Below, one piece after another: positions 14,508-21,364 of a stretch of 64,000 nt of DNA. Position 1 is the first letter of the stretch; each line of letters opens with the position of its first letter. This DNA is from Pseudomonadota bacterium. Its GTDB lineage: Bacteria > Pseudomonadota > Gammaproteobacteria > Burkholderiales > Rhodocyclaceae. The DNA lies in the NCBI GenBank assembly GCA_040754195.1, contig JBFMDJ010000025.1, positions 85,346-149,345 on the forward strand, written 5' to 3'. The notes beneath the pieces were generated by a model. That model searched no databases and was not told the DNA's origin. It was given only the letters and a program-made list of their open reading frames with translations. Both the position numbers and the translations under genes were made by a program.

Positions 14508-15194
14508 GTGTCCATCGACAGTCGTTTCGCCCCCCCCTGGTCCGATCCTTTCGCCGCGTGCGAGTCGCCGGCGCGGCGCGCCCTGCGCTTCGCCGCCGTG
14601 TTCGGCCTGCACCTGGCGGTCATCCTCGGCGCGGCGGAACTGGCCGGCCGTCCCGAGACGCGCGCCGCCGTGCAGGAAATCTTCGTCCGGCTGGTGGAGC
14701 TGCCGCCGCCGGCCCCGGAACCGCCGGCGCCGCGGCCCGTCCAGACAACGTCCAAACCTCAGCCCGTGGTGAAAAAGCCCGTGCCGCCCCCGCCGGTGCT
14801 GACAGCGGCAGAGGCAGCGCCGGCGGCGCCGGAAAGTTTCGCCGTCGCCCCGCCGCCGGCGCCGGCCGTCTCCGCGATCGCGCCCGCGCCCCCGGCGCCC
14901 CCGGCACCCGTGACGGCGGCACGCTTCGACGCCGACTACCTGCACAACCCTCGCCCCGCCTACCCATCCTCCTCGCGCCGCCTCGGCGAGGAAGGCACGG
15001 TCGTCCTGCGCGCGCGCGTCGGCGCGGACGGCAGCCCGCTCGTCGTCGAACTGCGCGATTCGAGCGGCTTCCGCCGTCTCGACGAAGCGGCGCTCGCCGC
15101 CGTGCGCCGCTGGCGTTTCGTGCCCGCCCGCCAGGGCGATCGGGCCATCGAATCCTGGGTCGCCGTGCCCGTCGTCTTCAAGCTGGAGTCCTGA
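14508..15194 (+). CDS. tonB: Energy transducer TonB
   Basis: N-terminal TM with His (FGLHLAVIL), Pro-rich linker, C-terminal PAYPSSSRRLGEEGTVVL...RRWRFVPA. GTG start is approximate. Confidence 0.88.
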   Translation: MSIDSRFAPPWSDPFAACESPARRALRFAAVFGLHLAVILGAAELAGRPETRAAVQEIFVRLVELPPPAPEPPAPRPVQTTSKPQPVVKKPVPPPPVLTAAEAAPAAPESFAVAPPPAPAVSAIAPAPPAPPAPVTAARFDADYLHNPRPAYPSSSRRLGEEGTVVLRARVGADGSPLVVELRDSSGFRRLDEAALAAVRRWRFVPARQGDRAIESWVAVPVVFKLES

Positions 15195-15196
15195 CC

Positions 15197-15916
15197 ATGC
15201 CTGTCCAACTCGGTCTGTCCCATTTCTGGTCGCAGGGCGACTTCGTCACCCATGCGGTCTCGCTGCTCCTGCTGGCGCTGTCGGTCGCCTCATGGATGGT
15301 GATCGCACGCAAAACCCTCGGCCAATGGCATGAAAGCCGCGGCCGCGAGCTCGCGCTGGCCGCCTTCTGGGCCGCCGAGTCGCTGCCGCAGGCGCTGGCC
15401 GCGATCCAGGCCGAGGATCGCACCGGCATCTACGCGCGCCTCGCGCTGGCCGGCGCCCACGCCGCGGAAACCCACGAGCAGAACGCGCGCGGCATCGGCG
15501 CCGGCGTCAACGTCAGCGAAGCGGTGACGCGCGCGCTGCGCAACGAGATCGTCAAGGCGCAGACCGGGATCGAATCCGGTCTGACCTTCCTCGCCTCGGT
15601 CGGTTCGACGGCGCCCTTCATCGGCCTGTTCGGCACGGTCTGGGGCATCTACCACGCGCTGGTCGGGCTGGCCGGGGCCACCGCCGTGGTGCTCGACAAG
15701 GTGGCCGGCCCGGTCGGCGAGGCGCTGATCATGACGGCCGCCGGCCTGTTCGTCGCCATCCCCGCCGTACTGGCCTACAACGCCTTCACGCGCGCCAACC
15801 GCATCACGCTGGCGCTGCTCGACGGCTTCGCCCACGACCTGCACGCCTACCTGACCACCGGCGCCCGCAGCGCCGGCGGCCTGCATCTGGTCCAGGGCGC
15901 GCGGCAGGCCTCATAG
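15197..15916 (+). CDS. exbB: ExbB/TolQ proton channel subunit
   Basis: LASVGSTAPFIGLFGTVWGI and EALIMTAAGLFVAIPA motifs; ATG 15197 inside ORF 14468..15916. Confidence 0.92.
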   Translation: MPVQLGLSHFWSQGDFVTHAVSLLLLALSVASWMVIARKTLGQWHESRGRELALAAFWAAESLPQALAAIQAEDRTGIYARLALAGAHAAETHEQNARGIGAGVNVSEAVTRALRNEIVKAQTGIESGLTFLASVGSTAPFIGLFGTVWGIYHALVGLAGATAVVLDKVAGPVGEALIMTAAGLFVAIPAVLAYNAFTRANRITLALLDGFAHDLHAYLTTGARSAGGLHLVQGARQAS

Positions 15917-15924
15917 GAAGCAGC

Positions 15925-18764: not shown

Positions 18765-19631
18765 ATGAAAGGTTTTCTGATTCCGCTCGGCCTGCTGGCG
18801 GCGTCCGCCGTCGCGGCCCAGCATGAGCATCATGGCGCGCCGGATGCCCCGGCGGTGCGTCCGGCGGCACGCGCCTGGACGCAGCAGCCCCTGCTGCTGC
18901 CGGCGCGCGCCACACGCGGCGAACGGGCGCAGGCGCGGCTCCAGCCGCGGGGCATCGCGCCGGCGATCCTGACGGTATTCGCGCCGGAAGGCCATGCCGC
19001 ACAGCACAAGGCCGATTATCCGGTCGCTCCTGAAGGAGCGAAGATCGCGCCCGCCTCCCCGAAAATCGGCAATTACCACTGGGTCGTCGCGCGCGAGGAG
19101 ACGCCGGAGGCCGTCCGGGTCGCCTCGACCGCCTGGTATTTCGGCAATCCCGGCGACTCGCCCGTGGATCTTCTGAAGATTCCGAGGCACGAACTGGAGA
19201 TCGTGCCCGACCCGCTGCCGCGCGAGCATGGCAGCTACCGCGAAAGCGAGAAATGGCGCTTTCTGGTGCGCTGGAACGGCGCCCCGCTGACCGGCCAGCC
19301 TTTGACGCTGGAGACCGAATTCGGCACCCGCACGCGCTTCGTCACCGACGCTTCCGGCCGCGCGGTCGTGCTGTTCCCGCGCGACTTCGGGCCGGCGGAG
19401 GATGCGCCCGACGGCGGGCATGGCAGACGAACAGGCAAGTTCGTGCTGTCCGCGGAAAAGGAGGCCGATGGCCGGCGTTACCTGACCGCCTTCAACTACA
19501 GCTATGGCCAGGATGCCGACCGCGACCGCAGCCTCGGCTGGGGCGCCGCCTTCGGCCTGATCGGCATGCTGGCGGCGATGCCGCTGCTGCGCAGGAAAGC
19601 CGCCACGCCAGGAGACGCGAAAAATGCCTAA
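18765..19631 (+). CDS. Exported protein with a His-rich N-terminus and a C-terminal TM anchor (DUF4198-like, metal-uptake associated)
   Basis: Signal peptide followed by QHEHHG; RFLVRWNGAPL...FVTDASGRA resembles DUF4198; C-terminal hydrophobic helix then RRK. The family call comes from recall, not a search. Confidence 0.6.
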   Translation: MKGFLIPLGLLAASAVAAQHEHHGAPDAPAVRPAARAWTQQPLLLPARATRGERAQARLQPRGIAPAILTVFAPEGHAAQHKADYPVAPEGAKIAPASPKIGNYHWVVAREETPEAVRVASTAWYFGNPGDSPVDLLKIPRHELEIVPDPLPREHGSYRESEKWRFLVRWNGAPLTGQPLTLETEFGTRTRFVTDASGRAVVLFPRDFGPAEDAPDGGHGRRTGKFVLSAEKEADGRRYLTAFNYSYGQDADRDRSLGWGAAFGLIGMLAAMPLLRRKAATPGDAKNA

Positions 19632-20697
19632 AACTCTGTTGGCCCTGTTTCCCACCCTCGCGCGCGTCCGCCTCGTGGTGCAACTCGCCATGCTGTTCGT
19701 GACCGTCTATGGCAGCGTCTTCGTCGGCACCTACATGGCCGACAAGATCTCGAACAACCTGCCGGCCCTCTCCTGCGCCTACGACCAGATGAACGGCGGC
19801 TACTGCGTGCTGATTCCCACCCAGCACATCATCCACCACCGCATCGGCGAGGCGCTGGTACGCGCCCAGCAGCTCACCTTTGGCATGGTGCTGCCGCTCT
19901 TGATGTCCTTCGCCGCCTTCTTCGCCTTCTTCTTCGTGCTCGGCAAGGCTTTCTGCGGCTGGGTCTGTCCGCTCGGCACGCTGCAGGAACTGATCGGCAA
20001 GATCGGACGGCGCTTCGGCATCGGCCTGCGCCGCTTCGAGGCCGGCGATCTCGGCGCGGCGCGGCGCGCGCGGCCGGTCAAGTGGCTGCTCCTGCTCGGC
20101 CTCGTCTTCCTGCTGCCGCTGCTCACCGGGCTGGGCGTGACGCCGCATTCGATGGGCAACCCCTACTGCGACATCTGCCCGTCGCGCGTGGCGACGACGC
20201 TGCTGACCGGCAACACGGAACAGCTCGCCCTGCGCCTCGGCGACAACGTCAGCTTCGGCCTCGGCGCCATCGCCAACCTGCTGATCGGCTTCACGCTGGT
20301 CGGCGCGCTGGCGATTCGCCAACCATTCTGTCGCATCTGCCCGCTGCTGGCCTTCAATGCGGTGTTCCAGCGGCTCTCGCCGATGCGGCTTGCCAAGCAA
20401 AAGCATGAAAGCTGCGAAAAGTGCGGCGTCTGCACCGAGGCCTGTCCGATGGACATCCCGGAGATCGCCAGGGAAGAGGGGCGCAAGGCCTACAACGAGG
20501 ACTGCACGCTGTGCGGCCGCTGCGCCGAATACTGCCCGCAGGACGGCGTCATCCAGCTCAAGTGGGGGCCGTTCGCGCTGTTCGCGTCAAGCCGCGAGTA
20601 TTACAAGCGGCGCGTCAGGGCCGAACTGCCGGACGGCACGGTGAAGCCGGTCCGGTTCGCGAAGGCCGCCGCCAAGCCATCCGCAGCCGATGCTTGA
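19624..20697 (+). CDS. Membrane polyferredoxin of the NapH/MauN/CcoG type (2x[4Fe-4S] plus CxxxCP motifs)
   Basis: FCGWVCPLG, YCDICP, FCRICP, CEKCGVCTEACP, CTLCGRCAEYCP; several TM helices. Confidence 0.85.
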   Translation: MPKTLLALFPTLARVRLVVQLAMLFVTVYGSVFVGTYMADKISNNLPALSCAYDQMNGGYCVLIPTQHIIHHRIGEALVRAQQLTFGMVLPLLMSFAAFFAFFFVLGKAFCGWVCPLGTLQELIGKIGRRFGIGLRRFEAGDLGAARRARPVKWLLLLGLVFLLPLLTGLGVTPHSMGNPYCDICPSRVATTLLTGNTEQLALRLGDNVSFGLGAIANLLIGFTLVGALAIRQPFCRICPLLAFNAVFQRLSPMRLAKQKHESCEKCGVCTEACPMDIPEIAREEGRKAYNEDCTLCGRCAEYCPQDGVIQLKWGPFALFASSREYYKRRVRAELPDGTVKPVRFAKAAAKPSAADA

Positions 20698-21364
20698 GGA
20701 TCTCGCCGCCGGGCAGGTGACGCTGGCGACGGTCTGGCTGCTTGGCGTGTCGATGGGTCTGACCGCCTGCACCGTCACCTGCCTGCCCTTCATGGGCACC
20801 TGGGCGCTCGGCCGCGCCAGCGGGCAGCGCGAGGCCTTCCTGCACACCGGCGTGTTCCTCGCCGGCCGGGTGGCGACCTACACCGTCCTCGCCGCGCTCG
20901 CCGGCGCCGCCGGACTCGGCCTCGCCAAGGCGCTCGGCGGTGGCTGGGGCAATGCGTTCATCGGCGTGGCGAGCATCGTCGCCGGCCTGTGGCTGCTGCT
21001 GCGACCCGCGAAGTCATGTGCCGCCGTCCCGCCGCGGCTGACTTTTCAGGTCGTTCGCGTCCGGCGCAAACGCGACAGCCTGCCGCCGCTCTTTCTCGGC
21101 GCGGCGCTCTCGCTCACGCCCTGCACGCCGCTCGCCTCGCTGCTCGCGCTCGCCGCCCACGCCGGCGGCGCGGCACAGGGCGCGGCCTACGGCCTGGCCT
21201 TCGGCCTCGGCGCGGCGATGACCCCCTTGCTCGTCATCGTGCCGCTGGCCGGCCATCTGGGCCGCGAAGTGCGCGCCGGCCGCGCCTGGCTGGGCCGCTG
21301 GCTCCTTTGGGGCGCGGCGGCGGTGCTGATCCTGCTGGGCCTGAGACGCCTGATGCTGATCTGA
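20690..21364 (+). CDS. CcdA/DsbD_2 (TauE/SafE-like) membrane thiol protein
   Basis: About six TM helices; MGLTACTVTCLPFMG and LSLTPCTPL Cys motifs. Confidence 0.72.
   Translation: MLEDLAAGQVTLATVWLLGVSMGLTACTVTCLPFMGTWALGRASGQREAFLHTGVFLAGRVATYTVLAALAGAAGLGLAKALGGGWGNAFIGVASIVAGLWLLLRPAKSCAAVPPRLTFQVVRVRRKRDSLPPLFLGAALSLTPCTPLASLLALAAHAGGAAQGAAYGLAFGLGAAMTPLLVIVPLAGHLGREVRAGRAWLGRWLLWGAAAVLILLGLRRLMLI
21022..21046 (+). repeat. Dispersed 25-nt motif copy, inside the DsbD_2-like CDS
   Basis: CGCCGTCCCGCCGCGGCTGACTTTT, encoding AVPPRLTF. Confidence 0.85.

Follow-up and report, generated by a model that had tools for sequence, protein, structure and literature searches.

What is imported by a set of seven linked genes, and by what route the substrate is handled in the cell envelope, are the questions raised by a locus in a stretch of DNA of 64,000 nucleotides (nt; hereafter the window) from a member of the Rhodocyclaceae (contig JBFMDJ010000025.1). 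The genes, which were called from the listing of open reading frames (ORFs) and then subjected to Pfam and NCBIfam profile searches, are co-directional on the + strand and make up two operons, tonB-exbB-exbD and receptor-P5-polyferredoxin-DsbD_2, where P5 is an anchored DUF4198-like protein with a His-rich N-terminal tip. In our estimation there is an even chance that this two-operon module imports a redox-active metal, most likely copper, for cuproenzymes of the cbb3 oxidase and N2O reductase type, under activation by a RegB/RegA (RegBA) system; which metal it is, which way the electrons flow and what the DsbD_2 protein does are what we infer. The import of copper in bacteria is poorly known compared to its export, especially with regard to the inner-membrane step and the reduction of Cu(II), and to our knowledge only carriers of the CcoA type (major facilitator superfamily), CcoG and the recently proposed CrpH are on record for copper entry or reduction at the inner membrane. 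The module could fill this gap in denitrifiers, perchlorate reducers and sulfur-oxidising symbionts, and copper supply governs the activity of N2O reductase and hence N2O emission.

Composition and conservation of the module

The first operon consists of tonB (14508–15194, +; 228 amino acids (aa), GTG start, Pro-rich spacer), exbB (15200–15916, +) and exbD (15925–16341, +), separated by gaps of 5 and 8 nt. Their products match TonB_C PF03544 (75.5 bits; also TIGR01352), MotA_ExbB PF01618 (104.4 bits) and ExbD PF02472 (103.2 bits), respectively, with all three Pfam scores exceeding the cutoffs. In the second operon, the gene for the TonB-dependent receptor (16473–18752, +; 759 aa) is followed after 12 nt by that for P5 (18765–19631, +; 288 aa), which overlaps the polyferredoxin gene (19624–20697, +; 357 aa) by 8 nt, the latter in turn overlapping the DsbD_2 gene (20690–21364, +; 224 aa) by 8 nt. 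An earlier note on this DNA had described these seven genes with the same order, coordinates and tight linkage, and the present gene calls and profile searches agree with it throughout. The motifs that it quoted were likewise all found, namely DYCSRG...YNCNG in the receptor, QHEHHG after the signal peptide and a C-terminal anchor in P5, and CX3CP, two CxxCP and two CxxCxxCxxxCP motifs in the polyferredoxin. It had overlooked the RegA-type boxes, an additional invariant Cys pair and a His cluster in the polyferredoxin, and an FNR-like palindrome with a leader hairpin, all of which are described below.

A scan of one genome per species with the P5 alignment returned 66 loci, most of them from the Rhodocyclales (Rhodocyclaceae, Azonexus, Dechloromonas, Sulfuritalea, Methyloversatilis and Sulfuricella), in which P5, the polyferredoxin and DsbD_2 are adjacent and in the same order wherever the contig allows. 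The four-gene block delineated by the earlier note is thereby kept across all 66 loci, a conservation far above chance expectation. The polyferredoxin is the best-conserved of the three core genes (65–88% identity, with 46–73% for P5). In nearly all loci with the upstream flank, a gene for a TonB-dependent receptor lies in front of P5, as established by tblastn with the window receptor, a few missed loci being recovered through gene-family clustering. The type of receptor varies, being either an orthologue of the window receptor (57–80% identity) or another type (22–27% identity); TonB-ExbBD is encoded upstream or downstream of the core, depending on the locus, and in six loci a second receptor gene lies between those of the polyferredoxin and DsbD_2. 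Since the core is invariant and the receptors are interchangeable, this suggests that the core handles a common product and that different complexes are brought in by the different receptors. The inserted receptor is approximately 640 aa in length (L005/L069, L006, L032, L040 and L043), and a further receptor family, which scores 133 bits to TIGR01778 (a weak match), often follows DsbD_2 with a RegA-type box of its own.

A second clade (45–50% identity), retrieved by means of a profile of distant polyferredoxins, belongs to sulfur-oxidising Gammaproteobacteria (Sedimenticola thiotaurini, Ca. Thiodiazotropha and Chromatiaceae), in which the operon reads receptor, P5-like protein, polyferredoxin, DsbD_2, ExbB, ExbD, TonB. 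P5 of the window and its Sedimenticola counterpart share 35% identity (E 4e-26). Among the carriers of the module are culturable organisms, i.e. Dechloromonas agitata DSM 13637, Azonexus sp. IMCC34839 and S. thiotaurini. A literature search (copper with TonB and polyferredoxin, DsbD_2 with copper, the operator sequence, and FtrABCD) did not yield a description of the module.

The polyferredoxin carries a Fer4_5 region and a 4Fe-4S dicluster domain. Across 60 orthologues, none of its 16 Cys residues varies, nor do H68, H72 and H175, and 98% of these sequences have H71. As the AlphaFold model proved unusable, topology was taken from hydropathy and the positive-inside rule, which predict four transmembrane (TM) helices with the N-terminus inside; C51, C61, H68, H71 and H72 would thus lie in one periplasmic loop and H175, C182 and C185 in another, with C111/C115, C236/C239 and both [4Fe-4S] motifs on the cytoplasmic side. 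Wider relatives (23–36% identity) retain the four Cys pairs and not the His cluster, and the family is small, comprising 26 clusters (50% identity, E ≤ 1e-30) among 1.8 billion representatives. A sequence search of the PDB returned generic ferredoxin domains only. The best NCBIfam family is NapH/MauN TIGR02163 (E 4e-22), although the score of 78.9 bits compares with a cutoff of 213, and neither napG nor other nap genes were found in the window or in related loci. The FixG_C domain is absent in the Pfam scan, and no CcoG model is among the 25 best of 45 NCBIfam matches, so that any such match has an E-value above approximately 2e-4. With the NapH cutoff missed and these partial CcoG tests negative, the protein is, as judged by profile matches, a member of the NapH/CcoG/NosR superfamily at that level only, and it is at this level that the CcoG/NapH-like label proposed previously can be retained.

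Common to the polyferredoxin and NapH/MauN are the layout of four TM helices, as predicted here, a pair of CxxxCP-type motifs and a dicluster domain on the cytoplasmic side, but the polyferredoxin has no NapG partner and, according to the predicted topology, adds periplasmic Cys pairs and a His cluster. CcoG, an Fe-S cupric reductase, reduces Cu(II) for cbb3 oxidase (PMC7558416). This protein (FixG/RdxA, encoded in the ccoGHIS cluster) is likewise a polyferredoxin of the membrane, in which a Fer4_5 CX3CP region is combined with two [4Fe-4S] clusters and with copper sites formed by Cys. In contrast to CcoG, the polyferredoxin of the window has four predicted TM helices, lacks the Ig-like FixG_C domain and possesses extra invariant Cys and His residues on predicted periplasmic loops; moreover, its gene sits with an importer, whereas ccoG sits with an exporting ATPase.

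P5 is composed of a signal peptide, a flexible QHEHH tip, a Pro/Ala linker, a beta-rich domain, and a C-terminal TM helix followed by RRK. H20 in the tip and H105 and H155 in the beta-rich domain are invariant in the P5 alignment, and in the gamma clade the His motif stands at a variable distance from the cleavage site. The DUF4198 relationship suggested by the earlier note was found in part: the window protein has no match to Pfam DUF4198 (PF10670) at E ≤ 0.01, while 20 of 23 close homologues match it weakly (best E 4.5e-6). Sequence searches of the PDB with P5 returned noise only, and an exact-sequence look-up of the window protein gave no record. The AlphaFold model of P5 (predicted local distance difference test (pLDDT) 77) has as its best PDB match 9gcb, a Ni-bound DUF4198 protein of Ideonella (E 1.4e-7, probability 1.00, TM-score 0.50 normalised to the target), and on the basis of this fold match and the weak PF10670 matches of its orthologues P5 is tentatively assigned as a remote, membrane-anchored DUF4198 protein. 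Characterised members of this family are periplasmic His-based binders of Ni (PMC12537917) or Zn (PMC12663993). With Zcp of Neisseria gonorrhoeae and IsDUF4198 of Ideonella sakaiensis, P5 is predicted to share the beta-sandwich fold, a periplasmic location, His-based metal binding and the frequent proximity of TonB-dependent receptors. Unlike these proteins, P5 is very divergent, is anchored at its C-terminus and carries its His-rich tip, which is flexible, on a linker of Pro and Ala; once the signal peptide is cleaved off, the chain begins with Gln-His and not with His1.

The DsbD_2 protein scores 76.1 bits to PF13386 against a cutoff of 24.9, in agreement with the family named by the earlier note, and contains six hydrophobic segments. 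C27 and C31 in TM1 (ACTVTCLP) and C145 in TM4 (TPCTP) are invariant, while C110, in a predicted cytoplasmic loop, is 94% conserved. The score to CcdA/DsbD_TM PF02683 is 25.5 bits and remains below the cutoff of 27.1, and a sequence search of the PDB returned noise only. In common with CcdA, DsbD and ScsB, the protein has six TM helices, Cys residues in TM1 and TM4 and a place in the LysE superfamily; it differs in having CxxxC in TM1, where those proteins have a single Cys, and in having no thioredoxin-fold partner. As the LysE superfamily comprises DsbD-type proteins as well as carriers of Ni/Co, Fe/Pb, Mn and Cd (PMC4608589), the DsbD_2 protein may by analogy be either an electron relay or a permease.

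With a signal peptide, a Plug domain (55.6 bits) and a TonB_dep_Rec_b-barrel domain (167 bits), the receptor is a TonB-dependent receptor, and no cutoff of a curated NCBIfam receptor family is reached by it. The solved structures nearest to its profile are those of YncD/PqqU (E 4e-51), which are also nearest to the alternative receptor type (E 1e-31); however, the window receptor scores 108.9 bits to PqqU (NF041535) against an equivalog cutoff of 1200 and is not a member of that family. The NosA/OprC family TIGR01778 (cutoff 472 bits) is absent among the 20 NCBIfam matches of the window receptor, OprC itself aligns over approximately 50 C-terminal residues only, and the receptor falls outside the CrtA and OprC sequence clusters. 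In the receptor orthologues, neither the CxxxM-HxM copper site of OprC nor any other conserved Cys/Met motif was found. The two Cys residues of the loop pair highlighted in the earlier note are conserved in 86% and 71% of the orthologues, and this pair is more likely to be a loop disulfide than a metal site. No characterised siderophore, heme or B12 receptor is close to the window receptor, as the reading in the earlier note requires, YncD/PqqU being the nearest solved relative, albeit a distant one.

Promoters and a candidate RegA-type operator

Alignment of the regions upstream of orthologous receptor genes revealed tandem copies of a 17-bp palindrome, TGCGAC-N5-GTCGCA, which occurs in exact form twice in the window, both times at a promoter. 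One copy, TGCGACATTCGGTCGCA (14428–14444), lies upstream of tonB, while the other, TGCGACCCCGTGTCGCA (16360–16376), is the promoter-proximal box of the receptor operon and is located 22 nt before a TAnnnT hexamer, the putative -10 element TAGCAT (16399–16404, +), which is of the TAG(A/C)(A/C)T type and stands at this fixed distance of 22 nt in relatives. The proximal box is abutted by a distal, degenerate box, TGCGGCACGTTGCCGCA (16343–16359; 2 mismatches), as in the tandem arrays of related loci. Published boxes of the same family are GNGRCRTTNNGNCGC for RegR and YSCGGC(5)GWCRMA for PrrA (quoted in PMC5506826); the core of the tonB box, GCGACATTCGGTCGC, fits the RegR box at all 15 positions, and the left half of the distal box fits the PrrA half-site YSCGGC.

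Related loci amounting to 1.05 Mb contain 23 exact sites and 93 with one mismatch, compared to approximately 0.2 and 8.6, respectively, in Markov simulations, an enrichment of the box of approximately 100-fold, and 80 of 95 sites are intergenic. The distance from the proximal box to the TAnnnT hexamer is exactly 22 nt in 25 of 37 loci, and because of this spacing the centre of the proximal box is predicted to lie near -42, which is the position of a class II activator. The geometry of the tonB promoter is less clear, its best -10 candidate, GATAAT, starting 26 nt after the box.

A candidate for the cognate regulator is found in seven related loci, where a gene pair for a histidine kinase and a response regulator is transcribed away from the receptor operon, the boxes lying in between. 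The best NCBIfam matches are ActS/PrrB/RegB for the kinase (NF033792, 220–228 bits) and ActR/PrrA/RegA for the regulator (NF033791, 172 bits). The regulator has the C-terminal helix-turn-helix of the RegA family (WEHIQR...NISATAR.L.MHRRTLQRKL), and the kinase carries GGATNPL where RegB has its quinone-binding motif, GGxxNPF. In three of the seven loci the genes form an operon nosL-nosL-regB-regA (L001 3394–6506, L022 1188–4412 and L024 1271–4432). Likeness to the known RegB/RegA systems (PrrBA, ActSR, RegSR, RoxSR) thus extends from the box, GNGRC-N5-GNCGC, to adjoining regBA genes that are co-operonic with the copper-chaperone gene nosL. An equivalent of this nosL-regBA pairing exists in Rhodobacter, where senC/prrC is next to regA/prrA. 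Based on these sequence features, both operons can be placed with fair confidence in a respiratory redox regulon of the RegB/RegA type. This would extend the RegB/RegA redox regulon to TonB-dependent nutrient uptake; in this respect the module differs from published regulons, among which one with a TonB-dependent uptake module was not found, and the homologues described here are betaproteobacterial. The link to respiratory enzymes that the earlier note had drawn is supported by the boxes at both promoters and by the adjacent regB-regA genes, as well as by neighbours that include nosL, nirS-like genes, SCO1, PCuAC and a CcoI-like ATPase.

The RegA-type box is not universal. None was found in the gamma clade, and the Sulfuricella-type loci L043, L049 and L052 have, in place of a RegA box, sigma-54-type promoters (TGGCA-N6-TTGC) with upstream TGGCAC-containing repeats, which suggests that the same module is under a different regulator there.

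Other modes of control were also considered. A Fur box had been reported absent by the earlier note, and this was confirmed in both upstream regions, where the best match to GATAATGATAATCATTATC is 9 of 19 positions (criterion at least approximately 13 of 19). Positions 13000–23000 were searched against Rfam by E-value, with no credible riboswitch or other known RNA. The leader of the receptor operon contains a hairpin of 8 bp (16430–16448, +), detected in a scan for terminator-like structures and followed by a U-rich stretch, and it overlaps a perfect FNR-type palindrome, TTGATTTGTATCAA (16445–16458), so that the composite element spans 16430–16458. The segment 16405–16480 folds with -19.7 kcal/mol (z -1.97), its 5' UUCCUUC pairing with the Shine-Dalgarno sequence, and the leader may confer translational or attenuation control. 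The palindrome is the sole TTGAT-N4-ATCAA match in the window and ends 14 nt before the receptor start. Neither the palindrome nor the hairpin is conserved in related loci, in which unrelated small hairpins occur in the orthologous leaders. FNR was accordingly rejected as a conserved regulator, the palindrome being absent at that place in relatives, and it is mentioned as an aside since it overlaps the hairpin and is downstream of the predicted transcription start.

A gene of the Crp/Fnr family (FtrB-like) lies between exbD and the receptor gene in approximately nine related loci. Its product was rejected as the protein binding the 17-bp palindrome, given its FNR-type recognition helix, which we take to be of the E--SR type, and the odd length of the box, for which RegA is a better fit. 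An operator pattern GCGACA-N4-TGTCGC was also discarded, as its matches are at chance level and the N5 spacing fits instead. Among public sequencing runs, the search turned up metagenomes only, in which approximately 10% of the words sampled were present, and no RNA.

The probable substrate and its proposed handling

That the module includes a putative reductase speaks for a metal that can be reduced, i.e. copper or iron, as the substrate, and among the Cu, Ni or Co proposed by the earlier note the genomic context favours copper, and not Ni or Co. The RegA-type box also occurs upstream of nosL and of copper receptors of the TIGR01778 family (599 bits against the cutoff of 472), true members of which are encoded elsewhere in related loci. 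A further operon preceded by this box in related loci encodes a Redoxin, a 62-aa protein rich in Cys, another rich in Met, a copper P-type ATPase (TIGR01511, 562 bits with a cutoff of 397) and, at its end, a different DsbD_2 paralogue, whose HCxxMCGG in TM1 looks like a set of metal ligands. In 25 of 67 loci, genes for NosL, a Cu-ATPase, SCO1, PCuAC, OprC/NosA or a Met-rich protein are present within 9 kb, where we estimate a few per cent to be expected by chance given the rarity of copper genes. Genes for cd1 nitrite reductase lie near some loci, and COX1, CtaA and SCO1 are encoded beside the Thiodiazotropha operon. The all-His ligands of P5 would suit Cu(II) prior to reduction, and the Cys-rich membrane proteins would suit Cu(I) thereafter.

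The copper-ATPase operon lies at L069 (1773–6608) and also in L005, L010, L011 and L064; its Met/His-rich protein has 118 aa, and an unknown 184-aa protein is encoded in addition. It resembles a unit for copper export or for the assembly of cuproenzymes, several parts of which are uncharacterised.

We envisage the following sequence of events. Upon a signal of need from respiratory electron flow, a RegB/RegA-type system would bind TGCGAC-N5-GTCGCA and activate both operons. The receptor, powered by its own TonB-ExbBD, would bring Cu(II) or a small chelate of Cu through the outer membrane, and anchored P5 would capture the metal, as DUF4198 proteins do, by means of its His-rich tip and conserved His residues. 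Electrons from the cytoplasmic [4Fe-4S] clusters would pass through the Cys pairs at the cytoplasmic face to the Cys/His sites predicted to be periplasmic, where the polyferredoxin would reduce Cu(II) to Cu(I) by a chemistry resembling that of CcoG. The DsbD_2 protein would then either conduct Cu(I) inward, as a permease of the LysE superfamily, or relay reducing equivalents like CcdA, and Cu(I) would finally be passed to chaperones or ATPases. The more far-reaching version of this scheme, which we consider possible though rather doubtful, is that the polyferredoxin and DsbD_2 constitute a hitherto unrecognised RegBA-switched device for copper entry at the inner membrane, with P5 'fishing' for the metal, Cu(II) being reduced and Cu(I) being carried on the three intramembrane Cys residues of DsbD_2; RegBA would in that case sense copper shortage indirectly, through the reduced electron flow in copper-dependent terminal oxidases. 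In either version, a testable role is offered for three poorly understood families, i.e. a DUF4198 binder, a new subfamily of membrane polyferredoxins, and DsbD_2.

The scheme has precedents among known systems. In CrtA-CrpH, a TonB-dependent receptor for copper is joined by a putative reductase of the periplasm (PMC13038864, PMC12914433), and the CrtA receptor is thought to take copper chelates with low selectivity (PMC12914433, PMC13038864). The nearest functional analogues are found in Bordetella pertussis (CrtA-CrpH) and in Pseudomonas (OprC and its PepSY_TM neighbour), where the receptor gene shares a transcript with that of an inner-membrane protein which has been proposed as a copper reductase serving heme-copper oxidases. 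In those systems, however, the reductase is a di-heme PepSY_TM protein, where the module has an Fe-S polyferredoxin, and DUF4198 and DsbD_2 partners, both present in the module, are lacking. FtrABCD of Bordetella and Brucella is a ferrous iron system, regulated by iron and pH, that consists of P19, a cupredoxin, FTR1 and the polyferredoxin FtrD. It similarly unites a periplasmic metal binder, a permease of the LysE-superfamily type and a membrane polyferredoxin in one operon, but its components are non-homologous to those of the module save for the polyferredoxin class, and it has no TonB-dependent receptor.

Several observations weigh against copper import under RegBA control. The 64-kb window itself contains no copper gene and no regBA, and the regBA homologues of related loci score below the equivalog cutoffs (350 and 250 bits). 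The shared RegA-family box cannot fix the metal, since regulators of this family are global. The receptor resembles neither OprC nor CrtA, lacks the CxxxM-HxM site of OprC and has the PQQ (pyrroloquinoline quinone) importer YncD/PqqU as its nearest solved relative. For the DUF4198 family, the metal bound by the characterised members is Ni or Zn, and P5 lacks Cys and Met ligands. The AlphaFold model of the polyferredoxin has a pLDDT of 42.6, with a shallow alignment, and its topology comes from hydropathy and the positive-inside rule only. In the gamma locus L074 (1009–4872), furthermore, the module is just downstream of a zinc-uptake-like set, and the operon has an ArsR-type neighbour in Sedimenticola. 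The set in L074 comprises a Fur-family gene, zrgA, genes for an ATP-binding cassette (ABC) ATPase and an FtsX-type permease, and DUF3299, a hint of zinc as an alternative metal.

On an alternative reading, the module would serve redox maintenance in the periplasm and would not be an importer. Like CcdA, DsbD or ScsB, the polyferredoxin and DsbD_2 would on this account deliver reducing equivalents outward and thus maintain the Cys residues of a cuproenzyme, a chaperone or the receptor in the reduced state, or reduce periplasmic Cu(II) for insertion, without any metal crossing the inner membrane. The CcdA-like Cys pattern retained in TM1 and TM4 of DsbD_2 and the retention of the four Cys pairs, and not of the His cluster, in wider polyferredoxin relatives are consistent with such a function, as are the Redoxin/thioredoxin-like genes that follow the Sedimenticola operon and accompany the Cu-ATPase operon; CrpH, too, has been proposed to act in the periplasm, independently of the imported complex. 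However, P5 has no cysteine and therefore cannot be a thiol client, no periplasmic thioredoxin-fold partner is encoded in the window operon, and the strict pairing with a receptor and the dedicated TonB system argue for a transported substrate, which renders redox maintenance alone rather unlikely.

Reductive iron uptake would make use of the same parts, with a ferric chelate being imported, Fe(III) being reduced by the polyferredoxin at the periplasmic face, Fe(II) being taken by P5 and DsbD_2 serving as the Fe(II) permease. There are analogues for these steps in FoxB, FpvG and FsrB, which perform heme-based Fe(III) reduction, and in the FTR1-type carriers of the LysE superfamily and FtrABCD. 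Iron complexes are the cargo of most TonB-dependent receptors, and families of heme and siderophore receptors provide the best sub-threshold NCBIfam matches of the window receptor. A reductase suits Fe(III) equally well as Cu(II), a respiratory regulon could cover the supply of iron or heme, and some DUF4198 genes respond to iron limitation (PMC12663993). Nevertheless, CcoG reduces Cu(II) and not Fe(III) (PMC7558416), and neither promoter has a Fur box. The annotated recurrent neighbours are copper-specific, and genes for siderophores, heme, Feo or ferritin were not recognised among them, many neighbour families being unannotated. Iron is in our view an unlikely substrate.

The uptake of Ni, Zn or Co would assign P5 as the periplasmic binder and DsbD_2 as a NicO-like permease, the polyferredoxin keeping transport cysteines reduced or freeing the metal from a reducible chelator. 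This is in keeping with the properties of characterised DUF4198 proteins, given that IsDUF4198 binds Ni with a Kd of 18 nM and adjoins TonB-dependent receptors and NikR and that Zcp binds Zn, with the all-His ligands of P5, and with the Fur-family gene, ZrgA and ABC system adjoining the module in L074 and the ArsR-family gene in Sedimenticola. Yet none of these metals needs to be reduced, whereas the polyferredoxin is the best-conserved gene of the core (65–88% identity). The promoters point to control of the RegA type. Inspection of both promoter regions, which did not include a formal scan, showed no recognisable Zur or NikR box, and urease, hydrogenase or cobalamin genes were not recognised among the annotated neighbours. 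This explanation is regarded as quite improbable. That the module imports and reduces an organic redox cofactor, or a metal complex of such a cofactor, for example a PQQ-like quinone, is very improbable indeed, for although both receptor types of the module are nearest to YncD/PqqU among solved structures and match the NCBIfam PqqU family weakly, the window receptor scores 109 bits against the PqqU cutoff of 1200, no pqq or quinoprotein genes were recognised among the annotated neighbours, and DUF4198 proteins are metal binders.

Neighbouring genes

Two further uncharacterised proteins are possible members of the regulon. In five loci (L001, L010, L019, L024 and L065), TonB-ExbBD is followed by the gene for a Tll0287-like protein that bears a CxxCH heme motif, and a 332-aa membrane protein with the sequence HPHHHCPFC is encoded beside an ABC system in eight loci.

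In the window, the genes that flank the two operons were examined as possible additional parts of the module and rejected, as their conservation with the block is absent. Directly after DsbD_2 and before ftsX/ftsE lies a gene for an AAA+ ATPase (21495–22463), which best matches the ATPase module of Lon (101 bits to TIGR00763, far under the cutoff) and lacks a protease domain. Upstream of tonB, a cluster of signalling genes (8477–14374), which is not kept beside the module elsewhere and the domains of which were read by eye, encodes a large sensor kinase, an HD-GYP-like response regulator (10435–11976), a histidine kinase with an N-terminus resembling a bacteriohemerythrin domain (11981–13318) and, divergently, a double-receiver protein (13388–14374).

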